A stretch of DNA of 34,746 nucleotides. It comes from Deltaproteobacteria bacterium. GTDB lineage: Bacteria > Myxococcota > JACRCW01. Of the stretch, positions 14,305 to 27,466 are shown in pieces (position 1 is the first letter of the stretch; the number at the start of each line of letters is the position of its first letter). The translations under genes were made by a program, and so were the position numbers. The stretch spans positions 1 through 34,746 of the forward strand of contig JACRCW010000121.1 of the NCBI GenBank assembly GCA_016218805.1. The letters run 5' to 3'. The notes below the pieces were generated by a model. The model did not search any database. It was given only the letters and a program-made list of their open reading frames with translations, and was not told where the DNA came from.

Positions 14305-14973
14305 TTGCCGCCCCGGCTGATTGCCTACAACACCGCCATGGACACGCTGTGGAGCGAATGCATCTACACGGAGGCCCGCCTGCAGAAGGACCCCTTGGCT
14401 GCCGCGCACGCACCGGCCTTTGACGCGCTGGCCCAACGCGCCGTGGATACCAAACGCGCCCAGCAGGGCTGTTGGCGCGAGGAGATCATTGCGCAGGCGG
14501 GCGTGGACGCGGCGGATGATCGCCTGGATGACCGCACCGAGGGCCTGTCAGAGGAACTGCTGCGGGCGGTCAAGGGCGACCGGAAGGCGGCGCGGTACAC
14601 GCGGTATTTCAAGCAGGGGCCGCCCTCTTCGGTGGTGAAGCTGGGCGTGGAGTCCCAGGTGGCGGTGGTGAATGATTGGCCCGCGTCCCTCAAGACCGAA
14701 GCGGAGCCCGCGGTGCAGGCGCACGGAACGGGTCTGGAGACGGACGTGGCCGTGGCCAAAGCCGAACTGGCCGCGCGCAGCAAGGCATTTGCCGCCACCG
14801 CGGACCACCGCGCCCGCGAGATTGTGAAGCTGGTGGATGACGTCAACGCCGCGCGGCTGAGCGTGTACGGGTTGCTGGTGGGCCTGGTGGAGCCCAACAA
14901 GCTCCCGCGCGCCTGGCCGGACCGGTTCTTCCGCAAGGAGAGCCGGGAGAAGAAGGCGGCTGGCGTGGGGTGA
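14305..14973 (+). CDS. Hypothetical alpha-helical protein (222 aa) next to the tandem repeat array
   Basis: GGAGGA immediately upstream of a TTG start, host-like codon usage, Ala/charged helical composition. Confidence 0.8.
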   Translation: MPPRLIAYNTAMDTLWSECIYTEARLQKDPLAAAHAPAFDALAQRAVDTKRAQQGCWREEIIAQAGVDAADDRLDDRTEGLSEELLRAVKGDRKAARYTRYFKQGPPSSVVKLGVESQVAVVNDWPASLKTEAEPAVQAHGTGLETDVAVAKAELAARSKAFAATADHRAREIVKLVDDVNAARLSVYGLLVGLVEPNKLPRAWPDRFFRKESREKKAAGVG

Positions 14974-15010
14974 GGCGGGCGTGGATGACTTTGGACGGAT
15001 TGAAAACAGT

Positions 15011-15697
15011 TCACACCGGTCGGGCGTGGCCCTCAAGCACCACCTCGCCCGGGGCTGGTGATTGATGACGCGTGATTTCGAATTCGAAACCACCCGAAGC
15101 AAGCACCACGTAGGTGCCCTGCGGATCGTAGGCGGGACGTCCGATCTGACCGCCGTAGGATCCTCTCAGCGGACCGGGGTTGGTTCGGACCTTCACTGAC
15201 TGCTCTTCGCGGCGCCCCGCAAGTGCGGCTTGCGCGATGGTAGCCTGCGTCTCTCCAGGCACAACGGCGAAGACGTCCTGATCGGGGTTCCCTTCAACTC
15301 GCAGCAACCCGGCTACGTCCTCCGAGCAGCGCTCGGTGTAGTCTTTGAGGGTGGAGGGGAAGTCGCTGTTCTTGAGGAAATCCACCAGAAAGGATTGGAG
15401 CGCCCCTGGTTTGGTGAACTTCTTCGTCTTGCCGCCTTCAACCTCCACGGACCTGCCCGAAAACCAGAAGGTCAACATCACGCTCCGGCTGTTCCTGAGA
15501 TAGCGGGGCCAGGTCACCAGGGCGCGCTGCTCCGGGCGGCTGCCCGGCTCGACCGCCGCGCCGACCAGGTAGTCCTCGTTCTGGTTCAGGAACTCCGCGA
15601 ATTCCTCCAGGACGCTGTCGAACTCATTCGGTGCGCGAACCGGCGGGTTCGCCAGCCCTTCCAAGGTCTTCGTCAGTTGCTGTTTGAAGGGTGACAT
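15011..15697 (-). CDS. Hypothetical protein, partner of the EEP nuclease
   Basis: GAGGTG RBS, start overlaps the EEP gene end, lower GC, protein-like composition. Confidence 0.8.
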   Translation of the reverse strand: MSPFKQQLTKTLEGLANPPVRAPNEFDSVLEEFAEFLNQNEDYLVGAAVEPGSRPEQRALVTWPRYLRNSRSVMLTFWFSGRSVEVEGGKTKKFTKPGALQSFLVDFLKNSDFPSTLKDYTERCSEDVAGLLRVEGNPDQDVFAVVPGETQATIAQAALAGRREEQSVKVRTNPGPLRGSYGGQIGRPAYDPQGTYVVLASGGFEFEITRHQSPAPGEVVLEGHARPV

Positions 15698-16602
15698 CTG
15701 TTCACCTCGTTCACGCGCAGGGCCGCGTACACCGGAAGATGATCGGAGTACCTCGTGCGTTTACCGCCCGCCGTTGTCAACTTCTGCTCGCCGTCTTCAG
15801 CATTCAGGGTTTCCAGGATCTCGGGGGGCGCCAGGTGGTCGGCCAATTCGTCACTCACCAGGATCTGGTCCATGTGATGCCAAAGCTTGGCGGTATGAGG
15901 GCGTTTGTCGTAGGCAAGAGTACCCCAGGGACTGGCGTCCCGGAGCAGGCCCCACATCGGGTTGAACAGTCCCCGGGGGCCGCCGTGGGAACGTCCTGGC
16001 TTATCTTGCCAACATCTCAACCGCTCGCGCTCCCGGAACGCATACCACCCCTCTTCGTGCAACAGCTCCTCCTCGTAAGGGTCGGCGTTCAGGTCTCCAA
16101 GGACCGCGAGGGGGCGGCCACCCGCGAAACGCTCCACGGCTGACCGCAATTCCCGCGCCGCGGCGTGACGGTCGGCGCTCTCTCTCCCGCGCGGGTCCTT
16201 CTTGCTCACGGCGTGCACGCACGCCACGGCCAGATCGCGCCATTCGCCCCTAAGGTCCGCAAAGGCGGCTCCAACAAAACGTCCGTGCTCCTTCTCCTGC
16301 CTCGGTGGTTTCTCCGCCACAAGATCAAGGGTTGAAACGATGCACTTCGCGGAGCGAGTCCTGGCCGGACCTTGCCCCTCCAGGTACGTCACGAGCCCAA
16401 GGGTTCCCTGGGAGCGCGTCCGGATTTGGTCCCCAAGCAGCATTTCCGGGAGGTCCCTAACCGGGACCTCTTGAAGGGCTACGATCCACGGGCCCTGTTG
16501 GCGCGCGCTGAGTTTTCGCGCGATGTGGCCAATCGCCAGCCACAAGGCGTCCACGGAGCGGCCCACGTTCCAAGTCAGCAGGTGAACGGAGCGCGCTTCC
16601 AT
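15673..16602 (-). CDS. Endonuclease/exonuclease/phosphatase (EEP) family protein
   Basis: LLTWNV, ALQEV, VHAVSK, LGDLNADPY, LFNPMW, MDQILVS, YSDHLPV; full catalytic set present. Confidence 0.88.
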   Translation of the reverse strand: MEARSVHLLTWNVGRSVDALWLAIGHIARKLSARQQGPWIVALQEVPVRDLPEMLLGDQIRTRSQGTLGLVTYLEGQGPARTRSAKCIVSTLDLVAEKPPRQEKEHGRFVGAAFADLRGEWRDLAVACVHAVSKKDPRGRESADRHAAARELRSAVERFAGGRPLAVLGDLNADPYEEELLHEEGWYAFRERERLRCWQDKPGRSHGGPRGLFNPMWGLLRDASPWGTLAYDKRPHTAKLWHHMDQILVSDELADHLAPPEILETLNAEDGEQKLTTAGGKRTRYSDHLPVYAALRVNEVNRCHPSNSN

Positions 16603-16729
16603 CAGACGCAACCATCCCGGACGTCGGAGGAGGCACGTCCCCGGCCGTTGCCCTTGCGACACGCCCACGGCGCCATCACACACTCCTGCGCGCGCGAACC
16701 GCGCGCGACCAACCCGCTCGGGGAAACGC

Positions 16730-23121: not shown

Positions 23122-23721
23122 TCAGTCCTCGGCGGCAAACAGGTCGGACACCGGGACCTCAAGGGGCCACGCGGCTGACCGCGCCAACGTGCCGCGTCCA
23201 AACTCTCCGTGCTCCCGGTAGTCCGCGCCGTCCAGCGTGAGGACACAGACCCGCTCCTGTTGCGGGTCGACAATCCAGTATTCCGGGATGCCGGCGGCGG
23301 CGTAGTCGGCACGCTTGGTGACCCAGTCCCGCTGCGGGTCATCTGGACTGACCACCTCCATGACCAGGTCTGCGCCCGTCCAGTACTCGGGTCCGCGCCG
23401 CGGATCGTGGCGCGAACGGAGGGCGAGAACGTCCGGCTCGCGGAACCGACCCGAGCGCAGGCGCAGCCGAAGCGGGGCGAAGAAGGTGATGCCCTCGCGT
23501 CCAAGGAACGCACGCAACAGGGAGTGGAAGTACCGCACAATGGCCTGGTGCTTCTCGGTGGGCGTGGCACCAAACTCCAGGACGCCGTCATCCAGCTCCA
23601 CGAGGCGGTTGGTGTTACCACTGAGCCAGAGGTAGGCGCCGTCCGACCACTGCCCCTGGGCGGGCAGCACATCCAGCAGGTGCTGGCTCCAGCCGGGTTG
23701 GGCCGGCAGCGGGTTTCCCAT
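23122..23721 (-). CDS. Uma2 family (DUF820) PD-(D/E)XK endonuclease-like protein
   Basis: VELDDG, HQ, REPDV, LVMEVVSP, RDWVTKRADYAAAGIPEYWIVDP; AGGAGG RBS. Confidence 0.92.
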   Translation of the reverse strand: MGNPLPAQPGWSQHLLDVLPAQGQWSDGAYLWLSGNTNRLVELDDGVLEFGATPTEKHQAIVRYFHSLLRAFLGREGITFFAPLRLRLRSGRFREPDVLALRSRHDPRRGPEYWTGADLVMEVVSPDDPQRDWVTKRADYAAAGIPEYWIVDPQQERVCVLTLDGADYREHGEFGRGTLARSAAWPLEVPVSDLFAAED

Positions 23722-23786
23722 GGAACAACCTCCTGGAGAATCGTAGGAAGACACGGCGGGGCCTTCAAGCCCGCAAGGAGGACGCC

Positions 23787-24284: not shown

Positions 24285-24696
24285 TCACTGCGGCGTGAAC
24301 TTCGCGCTGACGTGAAAGACGAGCCGGTCGGTGTCGGTGGCCACCCTTGCGGAGGAGGTGGCGCCGTCCACGGCCAGTTTGAGTGTGTAACGTCCCTGGG
24401 CACCCGGAATGGTCACGGTGACGGGGTCCACGCAGCCCGGGCAGGGATGGAAGACAGGTGTGACGTTGGCGCCCTCCAACGTGGCCGAGAATGTCTCCGG
24501 CTTGATGGGTGGCACCGTAGAGCACGACAAGGTGGATTGGGTTGGAGGTGGGCGCCAGGTAGCGCAGGAAGACGTTGACCTCAGCGGGGCTCTGTCCGCC
24601 ACCGGCGAAGGGATTGGCCAGCGTGCCGGGGTACGTGATGGGATCCACCGGGCCAAGGACGTCACGGACTTGGTCGATTTGGAGACGGCTCGTCAC
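24285..24696 (-). pseudogene. Frameshifted remnant of a beta-rich (probably secreted) protein C-terminal domain
   Basis: Two overlapping minus-strand ORFs join into one coherent sequence if one C is removed at ~24507 (CTC TAC GGT GCC ACC [C] ATC AAG). Confidence 0.55.
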
Positions 24697-24959
24697 GTGC
24701 TGTTTGCGTCCGTGGGTCCCAGTCAGGCCTGAGTCCTACTTGGCGCGCTCCGGGCGGGTTCGGGCTTGTCATGCGAATGGTCACCGCCTCACCCGGCAGG
24801 AGCGGCGGGTTCCGATGGGGACACCAATCTGAGTCGAAGACGACGTTCATGGGGCCCAGACGGGTCGCCTGAGCGAGGAGGCCGAGGTGGTGTGCAGCAA
24901 GTTGGCGGAACCTACGCGAGTCGCCGGCCACCCGCAGGGGCCATGCGATTTCGACAGGT

Positions 24960-25856
24960 TCACGCGCAGGTCCAGCCTTGGTCGTTCAGCTTGGCTTGGT
25001 CCTGTCCCCGGTGGTGGATGCTTCCGGGGGTGCCCTCATCTGGCGGGCCACCGAAGGCCACGACGTTGATGTGCTTATCGCCGATCCGCTCCAGGAGTTG
25101 CATCTTCGAGATGAACACGTCCCAATGGTATCCAGCGCCGCCGGGGATGTTGGGTCGGGTCCAGGCGTTGTCCAGGCCATCGACGAACGACGGTTTTCCG
25201 GAACGCGTCTGCACGGCAGCTGTGGCGCCCTTCCACCACTCCGGTGGAGGACAGAACGGATAGCGCGCAGCATCCTCGCATGCCGGCAGGCGCCAGTCGA
25301 ACCGAGCGGTCCACGGAAGCTGAACGTGCCGCGGACGCGCGACGCAGGGAACGGGAACATGGCGGGAAGTTCCTGGTTGGACATAGAGGCGCCACCGCGT
25401 GACTTCATCGATCACGATGTTCCCCGTCTGGTGGCGGCGGATGTTCCTGCCCACCACGGGGCGCGCTATCAACACAATGGGTTCGTTCAAGCTCGCCAAA
25501 CGAAGCACTGACCTCGACATCCTGTCTACCCAAGCCGATGTTGAGAACAAGGCCGCGCAATCGAACATGAGACGAAAGCCCCAGACGCGCGTCACGTCCG
25601 TCAGGGGGGTGATGTGCCTCTGCAAAGCTCGCTTGCGCAACTCGGTAAGCCATGGCCGCACCTCTGGATACCGGTGCTCAATTGGGCGGATCAACTCCAT
25701 CCAAAGCGGTCGCCAGTAATCCTCCACTGCGACCAACTGAGCCTGTGTTTCCTTGAGAAACTCCAGAATCAGCCCAACATCGTGCTGGACCGCGGTTGCG
25801 CGGTCTGGACCATCTGTGCGTGCGGCGAAGAACGCCGGATCGATCAGTGCGATCAC
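24960..25856 (-). CDS. Hypothetical protein with C-terminal Ntox17-like putative RNase domain
   Basis: GTG start overlaps the ATPase TGA (GTGA); C-terminal LP...RYPFCPPPEW...FVDGLDNAW...HWDV...HINV...SIHH. Confidence 0.7.
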   Translation of the reverse strand: MIALIDPAFFAARTDGPDRATAVQHDVGLILEFLKETQAQLVAVEDYWRPLWMELIRPIEHRYPEVRPWLTELRKRALQRHITPLTDVTRVWGFRLMFDCAALFSTSAWVDRMSRSVLRLASLNEPIVLIARPVVGRNIRRHQTGNIVIDEVTRWRLYVQPGTSRHVPVPCVARPRHVQLPWTARFDWRLPACEDAARYPFCPPPEWWKGATAAVQTRSGKPSFVDGLDNAWTRPNIPGGAGYHWDVFISKMQLLERIGDKHINVVAFGGPPDEGTPGSIHHRGQDQAKLNDQGWTCA

Positions 25857-27466
25857 CGTTCCACCTCGGGCTCGCCACCTTCGTCGTGAATGACGGCAGC
25901 GTTGGGACCGGCTTCTTCTGCTGTGGGTCTCTTTGCCATCCCGCCATAGAAGATGGCGCTCTCCTCCTCACTCGACTCGTCCATGAAACCGGCTGGCCAG
26001 TGCTCGGCGATCCCGCCCACGGCCGTGAGCTTGCTGTGCTTGACAGTAGAACGACCCTCGGAGTCCTGTTCGACCTCGAGGATGACCACATTCTCGAGGA
26101 GCCATGTCTCCAGCGCGCTTCCGGCGCCTGAGCGAGCCACCAAGCCCCGCAGCCTGCGAACGAGATGGTCGCTGTGGGTCTCCACGATCAAACGACGGTT
26201 GGACATGGCGAGGCTCACGAGCCAATGGGCGAGAAGGCTCTGCACCTTGGGATGAAGGTGTGCCTCGGCTTCCTCGATAGCAATGTGGGCAAAGCTCTTG
26301 CAGCGCTCCGAATACCTGGCGGGGGTGAGGTCACCTTCCTCGAGGCTCAGGAAGCGGAGCGGGTCCGAATACAACCCGAGTTCCACAAGCGGGAGGAGGT
26401 AGGCCAAGCCTCGCCCAACGTGGAGCAGGCTCGCGCTGCCGAACAGCAGCCTGAATCCAATCTCGCGGATCTCCTCCACCGACAGCGGCGTTTGGATGGA
26501 GAGGGCCTCAAGGACGTCGTTCACCGCGTCCACGAGTGGCCGCTCGCGTAGCGCCTCAGGGATGCTCACGCCGGACGAACCCTGGATGAGTGGCGGGAGA
26601 TAGTGTACGACCTCGCCGCCGCGACGATGAAGAAGCTGTGCGGCGAGCTCCCCGCTGGCGCCAATCTCCTGGGGCGCCACGTTCGATGCCTTGTAAAGAC
26701 TTGGTGGCGTGTGACGGGTAGAGCCTAGATACTGAAACTCGGAAAGGAGCTTCTTGAGGGCTTCAAGGGGTTGCGAGAGAAGAATCAGGTACGCGTTGTA
26801 CCAGGTTCGCTTCTTGTCGCGCGGTCCCCATCCCGACCAGGATAGGTCCGCTTTCAAATAGGGCACAAAGTGGTCCAACTCCACATCGACGTCGAGGGGA
26901 ACCCTGCCGCGCCAAAGGCACGTCCAGCTCCCCTCCTTGAACGACAGAGTGAACAGGGTCTTGTCGTCGGCAAGGTCCGATTGGAGTCGGATGGCGCTAA
27001 TTAGCGTTGTGCCTGATGCGTCCACTGTGTCAATCTGGATGGAGGATGTCGCGGGCTTCATTTCAGCCTGCCAGAACTCGTGATCCTCGAATCGGCTGAT
27101 CCCTGTCCACTTGGCCAGATTGGCCCGATCCGGGCGCCTCGCCTCGTCCGCGGCGCGCTTCATGTCGATCGTCGACTCCCACCGGAGGCCCAGTGTCGGG
27201 CCGGAAACGTCGGCGCCATTGGCGGGCCAGCCGAAGGTTAACTCACGGAGGTTGAAGGCTGAAACCACACCGTCGAGATGGATTGGAATATCGGAACGAG
27301 GCTCGGCCAGCGTCTGCTTCAGCAAGAGAAGGCATTGGATGATGCTGCTCTTTCCGCTGTTGTTGCAGCCCAGAATCACCGTAAGCGGCGCAAGCGGAAT
27401 CTCGGTCCGTGATTCAAAGCTCTTGAACCGTTCGATGGTCACCGACAGGAGCTTGGTGCCACTCAT
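25853..27466 (-). CDS. ABC-type AAA_21/AAA_15 ATPase, DUF3696-like C-terminus
   Basis: IERFKSF, Walker A LTVILGCNNSGKSS, signature-like HVGRGLAYLLP, Walker B IAIEEAEAHLHP, H-loop IVETHSDH, terminal WPAGFMDE; GGAGG RBS. Confidence 0.92.
   Translation of the reverse strand: MSGTKLLSVTIERFKSFESRTEIPLAPLTVILGCNNSGKSSIIQCLLLLKQTLAEPRSDIPIHLDGVVSAFNLRELTFGWPANGADVSGPTLGLRWESTIDMKRAADEARRPDRANLAKWTGISRFEDHEFWQAEMKPATSSIQIDTVDASGTTLISAIRLQSDLADDKTLFTLSFKEGSWTCLWRGRVPLDVDVELDHFVPYLKADLSWSGWGPRDKKRTWYNAYLILLSQPLEALKKLLSEFQYLGSTRHTPPSLYKASNVAPQEIGASGELAAQLLHRRGGEVVHYLPPLIQGSSGVSIPEALRERPLVDAVNDVLEALSIQTPLSVEEIREIGFRLLFGSASLLHVGRGLAYLLPLVELGLYSDPLRFLSLEEGDLTPARYSERCKSFAHIAIEEAEAHLHPKVQSLLAHWLVSLAMSNRRLIVETHSDHLVRRLRGLVARSGAGSALETWLLENVVILEVEQDSEGRSTVKHSKLTAVGGIAEHWPAGFMDESSEEESAIFYGGMAKRPTAEEAGPNAAVIHDEGGEPEVER

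Follow-up and report, generated by a model that had tools for sequence, protein, structure and literature searches.

An NsnB-like ABC ATPase coupled to a predicted RNase: a candidate two-gene anti-phage system without NsnA

A stretch of 34,746 nucleotides from a Deltaproteobacteria bacterium of the Myxococcota (contig JACRCW010000121.1, assembly GCA_016218805.1; the window) was analyzed with respect to two overlapping genes on its reverse strand. The upstream gene (25853..27466, -) encodes an ABC ATPase of 537 amino acids, counted from ATG, which resembles NsnB of the anti-phage system Menshen; the downstream gene (24960..25856, -) encodes an NsnC-like partner of 298 amino acids, counted from GTG, which we call the effector. 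On balance we favor the reading that the pair is an anti-phage system of two genes that stands alone, was moved horizontally and belongs to the DUF3696-ATPase family, working like NsnB-NsnC but without NsnA, the ParB-DUF262 protein of Menshen. A defense function as such is likely, and operation without a third gene is very likely. The pair is probably a variation on a type of phage defense that is already known, rather than a new type.

The gene pair and its ATPase

The two genes are translationally coupled, as an earlier note on this DNA had described: in a GTGA junction the stop codon of the ATPase gene shares bases with the start codon of the partner gene. Of 26 full-length loci of relatives, 25 have a 4-base (A/G)TGA overlap, and the remaining one (L014) has a longer overlap. 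The GC content of the pair is 0.614, whereas the genome tiles average 0.702 (sd 0.027), and only 0.16% of 2489 genome tiles of 2.5 kb each are as low. The compositionally foreign island of the earlier note was confirmed in its low GC content but not as an island, since it is a small low-GC patch; no tRNA genes were found in the window, and the boundary repeats found around the pair were short, imperfect and unconvincing. A search for a sigma-70 promoter yielded no match. The upstream neighbor of the pair is a divergent D-Ala-D-Ala-ligase-like gene (Pfam).

Pfam assigns the ATPase to the families AAA_15/AAA_21. Its best PADLOC match, and the only one of near-full length, is Menshen NsnB (E 1.5e-48, residues 8-501), followed by PDC-M55A (E 5.8e-33) and the HEC-03 ATPase; the AriA and GajA models match over short motifs only. 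A sequence search of solved structures returned a single OLD nuclease motif match. Walker A (GCNNSGKS, residues 33-40), Walker B (HIAIEE, 394-399), the D-loop (HLHP) and the H-loop (ETHSD, 429-433, with the histidine at 431) are all present. This upholds the intact Walker A, Walker B and H-loop of the earlier note with two peculiarities: the usual aspartate of Walker B is replaced by glutamate in 27 of 27 aligned ATPases (EE at 398-399), and HVGRGL (GxG type, 349-354) takes the place of the ABC signature. Arg251 occupies the Q-loop position, assigned by analogy with NsnB, for which an altered Walker B (EN), an arginine at the Q motif and a GxG signature are described in the available text of PMC12065111. 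Walker A, E398-E399, H431, R251 and the VG-G-L signature do not vary among the 27 aligned sequences.

Two further regions characterize the protein, a long insert at residues of about 60-240 and a DUF3696-like tail at about 484-505, which is followed by an acidic C-terminus. The DUF3696 family is matched by 10 of 27 ATPase relatives (best E 3.7e-4), and 14 of 16 plasmid tblastn matches of the ATPase are annotated as DUF3696. ATPases of the pair family are 497-562 amino acids long, compared to about 372-400 in NsnA-linked NsnB. The tail past the DUF3696-like motif (25856-25990, - in the window) is acidic and contains a conserved E-P-E; it is tempting to speculate that this tail could shield a basic RNase site.

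The two domains of the effector

The full-length effector matched no Pfam, PADLOC or NCBIfam model, and in line with the earlier note neither an HNH nor a Toprim family was detected in searches with the full-length protein. A 25-residue Toprim-like match of the isolated C-terminal domain (E 0.14) is at noise level. One search retrieved 58 relatives besides the protein itself, and a profile search 133 matches including fragments. Searches of viral contigs and plasmids found no relative there. Nor was a longer fused form of the effector found, which is weak evidence. The AlphaFold2 model is confident (predicted local distance difference test, pLDDT, 94.8). For the whole effector the ESM Atlas gave no usable feature match; a low-confidence Atlas model assigned parts of it to Ntox17 and PIN clusters.

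Residues 1-180 (25317..25856, -) form the predicted docking domain. In a fold search its top nine structural matches scored Z 5.0-5.8, led by protein-only RNase P and VapC toxins, and eight of these nine are PIN-type or RNase P/PIN-like by title. We assign a PIN-like fold because this list is consistent, rather than because of the height of Z; the PIN-like domain of NsnC is given with Z 5.8 in the available text of Li et al. (PMC12065111). Among 65 diverse relatives the only conserved acids in this half are D6 (64/65) and E151 (55/65), and Arg137 and Asn138 are kept in 59 of 65. The other three canonical PIN acid positions, placed from the secondary structure of the model, are non-acidic, unlike in the HEC-03 PIN proteins, which retain the PIN catalytic acids. 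The domain is therefore predicted to be a PIN-like fold of the inactive-PIN (inPIN) type, with most catalytic acids lost.

The C-terminal domain (residues 185-298; 24963..25304, -) is a predicted RNase domain of Ntox17-like/colicin-E3-like type. Modeled alone it is beta-rich (pLDDT 89). It is better conserved than the N-terminal domain (40% vs 26% identity), and H244, D246 and N264 (64 of 65 relatives each) as well as H282 (65 of 65) are near-invariant. Ntox17 (PF15524) is matched by seven of the 65 relatives at E<=1 (best 1.4e-5); a single one exceeds the Pfam cut-off (25.7 vs 25 bits), and the six others are weak. This single relative aligns to the window domain with 32% identity (E 4e-17). 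ESM Atlas neighbors of the domain are Ntox17, Ntox21 and Ntox37 clusters (scores 0.85-0.88), which are leads only, and a sequence search of solved structures gave only noise. The fold search ranked the RNase of colicin E3 first (Z 4.1, root mean square deviation 3.2, 69 aligned residues) and CdiA-CT(ECL) fourth (Z 2.9); both cleave 16S rRNA, according to the available text of PMC9086364. The resemblance of the modeled domain to colicin E3 is a weak lead and not a proof. The Ntox17 motifs are described as ExD plus His in the available text of PMC3482391; the window domain carries H-W-D (HxD), which would correspond to ExD. Taken together, it is fairly likely that the C-terminal domain is an RNase.

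Linkage, absence of NsnA and neighborhood

In agreement with the linkage of homologues that the earlier note had proposed to check, the ATPase gene lies directly upstream of the partner gene in 35 of 44 partner loci (33 distinct after removal of duplicates). Among the nine others, six have at most 125 bases of upstream sequence and three contain partner fragments with no ATPase (L015, L016, L044). One relative (L013) has a frameshifted effector; otherwise both genes are intact in the relatives of the pair, with motifs conserved at 40-60% identity. In a sample of 401 genomes of the phylum the partner occurs in four, the source genome included, always behind the ATPase; a further genome, G225, was rejected as a carrier because its ATPase belongs to another class. 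The spread across several phyla is patchy. Pairwise identities of ATPase and partner correlate (Mantel r 0.86, 0 of 2000 permutations; 26 loci, among which kin are not independent). In all 22 loci with at least 3 kb of flank the pair has a higher AT content than the flanking DNA. The pair is probably a horizontally moved cassette.

A profile of NsnA was run in all six reading frames over the 26 distinct loci that have 1.5 kb or more of sequence upstream of the ATPase (22 of the 44 partner loci, three further genomes and the window), and at none of them did it detect an adjacent NsnA. None of 62 upstream and 75 downstream neighbors was assigned to DUF262 by Pfam. The profile did pick up unrelated DUF262 genes that were not part of its training set. 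A DUF262 gene 6 kb downstream of the pair in L013, past DrmC, was rejected as NsnA since no ATPase follows it. As a control set we used the 30 best-scoring NsnB-model loci of the phylum sample, in which 58 of 401 genomes matched: NsnA lies directly upstream of 16 of 16 compact NsnB-type ATPases and of 0 of 14 long ones, and the partners of the latter are HEC-03 PIN proteins in 10 of 14 cases.

A tree of 65 ATPases agrees with this division. The 17 NsnA-linked ATPases are separated from all 48 NsnA-less ones with a Shimodaira-Hasegawa-like approximate likelihood ratio test (SH-aLRT) support of 100, and the ATPases of the pair family (30 rows) form one branch, also with SH-aLRT 100, which is not nested among the 17 sampled Menshen ATPases; the tree is quick and unrooted, with long branches and a narrow Menshen sample.

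Two groups of related genes were seen in addition. DUF262 proteins of about 530 amino acids without DUF1524 are common in the phylum (for example G000:C133:99036-100637), and in G273:C9 and G081:C125 such a gene and one for an NsnB-like ATPase are about 1 kb apart. Further DUF3696 ATPases without NsnA, whose partners measure 296-335 amino acids, are encoded at L052:2993-5810, L053:3233-5634 and L100:181-2711; none of these partners matches the effector family, and the two from plasmids are without any PADLOC or Pfam match.

To describe the neighborhood, part of the locus neighbors were run against PADLOC and the rest against Pfam. A PADLOC system gene lies within about 5 kb of the pair in 10 of 38 loci examined. 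In L013 and L021 the pair is inserted between DrmMI and DrmA of DISARM. Other loci have as defense neighbors DrmC (L002), a DrmA fragment (L005), DarTG (L006), HNH and type I specificity genes (L008), PDC-M38 (L026), Upx (L027), a methylase (L032) and PDC-M31 (L058). For Menshen a defense association of 27.9%, obtained by another method, is given in the available text of Li et al. (PMC12065111). In the window itself a gene for a Uma2-family putative endonuclease (23122-23724, -; PADLOC PDC-S03, E 4.8e-30) is located between recR and a pyridoxamine-oxidase-like gene.

Several further features were noted at these loci. A second ATPase pair, PDC-M38-like with a DUF3226 partner, lies directly upstream of the pair in L021:4428-8891 and L026:4155-8888, and in L021 both ATPase pairs are nested within DISARM. 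A capsid-like gene adjoins the pair in L009 (559-1473, -) and a phage integrase gene in L004 (4842-6062, -), which hints at carriage of the pair by mobile elements. Directly downstream of the pair in the window is the frameshifted remnant of an unrelated gene (24288-24700, -), two frames of which resemble G000:C136 at about 1731-2063 with 45-49% amino acid identity. A second low-GC patch (0.62-0.65) at about 14500-16700 contains an exonuclease/endonuclease/phosphatase gene and an open reading frame of 228 codons without a family.

Proposed mechanism, alternatives and known systems

From the NsnB4-NsnC2 complexes modeled in the available text of Li et al. (PMC12065111), in which the inPIN domain is sandwiched by DUF3696 tails, and from PARIS and Septu, we infer that ATPase dimers would grip the inactive PIN domain of the effector with their DUF3696 tails and keep the effector off. 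Because there is no NsnA, the ATPase itself would have to sense infection, possibly via its long insert. Infection would change the nucleotide state of the ATPase, and the C-terminal His/Asp RNase would be freed or switched on; an effector that is held and released and one that is switched on in place are about equally probable. The RNase would cut an RNA of translation, rRNA or tRNA, and the infection would be aborted. That its target is 16S rRNA is doubtful. Somewhat less likely still is the most specific version, a self-sufficient system in which the DUF262-less ATPase senses through its enlarged insert and unleashes an Ntox17-derived domain that cuts 16S rRNA at the decoding center like colicin E3. 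If this were true, NsnB-NsnC would be the functional core and NsnA an addition to it, and Ntox17 would gain its first activity.

Several observations weigh against the stand-alone defense system. The window ATPase itself does not match DUF3696, and a Foldseek search of the PDB with the ATPase and effector models gave no match at E<=0.001. The fold scores of both effector domains, modest for PIN (Z 5.8 at most) and low for colicin E3, are in a range that the tool calls common. The window effector itself has no Pfam match to Ntox17; the polymorphic-toxin-like RNase tail of the earlier note is thus supported via the seven relatives and not for the window protein, and the RNase activity of Ntox17 is itself described as a prediction in the available text of PMC3482391. 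With regard to the neighborhood, 28 of the 38 loci, as a raw count, have no clear defense neighbor, many being housekeeping contexts, and the only defense-type neighbor in the window is the Uma2/PDC-S03 gene 1.2 kb away. The defense context of the earlier note is upheld, with such neighbors at part of the loci. Finally, all four carriers in the phylum sample (G000, G182, G211, G367) have an unlinked gene for a DUF262 protein of about 530 amino acids.

This last observation would fit Menshen with its DUF262 sensor encoded elsewhere in the genome and acting in trans, since the protein occurs in only 78 of the 401 genomes overall and in 65 of 172 genomes of family f11, a tally that includes the unpublished genome G195. 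However, it resembles NsnA over the first 200 positions only (E 1e-10 to 1e-12), it is found mostly in genomes without the pair, and the sample of carriers is thin, with three of the four from one family. Moreover, NsnA is retained immediately upstream at each of the 16 compact NsnB loci, and the ATPase of the pair groups with NsnA-less relatives, which makes a sensor in trans very unlikely. Even less credible is a decayed, non-working three-gene Menshen system that has lost NsnA. The frameshifted effector of L013, the fragments in L015, L016 and L044 and the gene remnant directly downstream of the pair in the window would agree with decay, but NsnA is absent across the whole branch, which does not arise from within the sampled Menshen ATPases, and the conservation of intact genes and motifs largely refutes this explanation.

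The foreign composition, the patchy spread and the housekeeping contexts of most loci would also suit any mobile addiction module, that is, a toxin-antitoxin-like selfish or stress cassette with the ATPase as antitoxin, the RNase as toxin and no real anti-phage role. We consider this improbable, as the pair lies twice inside DISARM operons and elsewhere near DarTG, Upx, type I restriction-modification, PDC-M31 and PDC-M38 genes, and both tested relatives of the ATPase family, Menshen and HEC-03, protect against phage. To a similarly small degree we expect a defense pair with an effector other than a colicin E3-type RNase, one that cuts DNA or has an active PIN-like half. The weak fold matches of the C-terminal domain, its H-W-D in place of the ExD described for Ntox17 (the correspondence is our own) and the retention of Asp6, Glu151, Arg137 and Asn138 in the PIN-like half speak for such an effector. 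Against it, the three other PIN positions have no conserved acid, the invariant His/Asp/Asn set sits in the C-terminal domain, and the Atlas leads for this domain are all Ntox clusters.

ATPase-gated nuclease pairs are a well-known design, and NsnA-less relatives (HEC-03, PDC-M55) exist, which limits the significance of the pair. Nevertheless, a conserved NsnA-free branch that joins an NsnB-like ATPase to an inPIN-RNase would be a natural minimal system for the study of ATPase sensing and effector gating, and it offers a compact, regulated member of the uncharacterized Ntox17 group. According to the available text of PMC12065111, the authors were unable to explain how the signal passes from NsnA to NsnB. 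Their Menshen census took DUF262 genes as its starting point and for this reason could not include forms lacking NsnA. No published description of the pair was found in a literature search that covered few subscription papers and did not include the Menshen supplement and a 2026 preprint on BECR.

The comparison with PARIS (AriA/AriB) and Septu (PtuA/PtuB) made in the earlier note captured the logic, which is likely the same, of an ABC ATPase with a separate nuclease under its control, but overlooked nearer kin in Menshen NsnB, HEC-03 and PDC-M55. The ATPase of the pair shares only local motif matches with these two systems, and neither the Toprim family of AriB nor the HNH family of PtuB is present in the partner or its 65 relatives. 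With Ntox17, colicin E3 and CdiA-CT(ECL) the C-terminal domain shares a small beta-rich build, a W-D core and a conserved histidine; its link is a transitive sequence link to Ntox17 and a weak fold link to the other two. Different from these toxins, it is not secreted, has no immunity gene and is fused behind a PIN-like domain, and it appears to have His where the ExD of Ntox17 has Glu.

Menshen has in common with the pair family the NsnB-type ATPase with a DUF3696 tail and the NsnC layout of an inactive PIN-like N-terminal domain followed by a C-terminal effector domain. In Menshen NsnA is directly upstream of the ATPase, whereas the ATPase of the pair has no NsnA beside it, is about 150 amino acids longer, lies on a separate branch and carries EE in Walker B, compared to the EN reported for NsnB of S. 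silvestris in the available text of PMC12065111. The effectors named in the main text of that paper are Ntox18, Ntox21, Gp49, YoeB and PB-BECR1; Ntox17 is not named there. Within the scope of the PADLOC models of NsnC, which match 10 of 10 control partners, none of the 65 effector relatives has a match; PMC12065111 has 35 inPIN and 15 effector profiles of its own. Since no NsnA is adjacent to the ATPase, the pair is not a member of Menshen, the three-gene form of which is redescribed as ptuXYZ in the available text of PMC11980606.

HEC-03 also consists of two genes, a DUF3696-type ATPase followed by a PIN-fold protein, without DUF262. It protects E. coli and requires both genes, as stated in the available text of Payne et al. 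(10.1101/2024.01.29.577857), relative to which the A and B labels in PADLOC are swapped. Its partner is a lone PIN protein of about 165-180 amino acids with the acids kept, whereas the PIN domain of the pair is degenerate and joined to a second, toxin-like domain; the HEC-03 partner model matches none of the 65 effector relatives, compared to 10 of 14 controls. The PADLOC candidate PDC-M55 is likewise a two-gene system with an NsnA-less DUF3696 ATPase and has a partner of about 315-350 amino acids. The PDC-M55B model matches none of the 65 relatives but the partner of control L051 (2.5e-26), and the effector profile has no significant similarity to one PDC-M55B example (probability 5.6%). Profile-profile comparison of the effector family with NsnC, HEC-03 and PDC-M55B examples gave nothing significant. 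Because the partner matches that of neither system, the pair belongs neither to HEC-03 nor to PDC-M55. PADLOC, named as a check in the earlier note, thus places the ATPase closest to NsnB and leaves the partner without a match. The undescribed system of that note stands insofar as no named system matches both genes; it is not a new architecture, because NsnA-less two-gene systems with DUF3696 ATPases are already in PADLOC, and the pair is a new branch of this known family.

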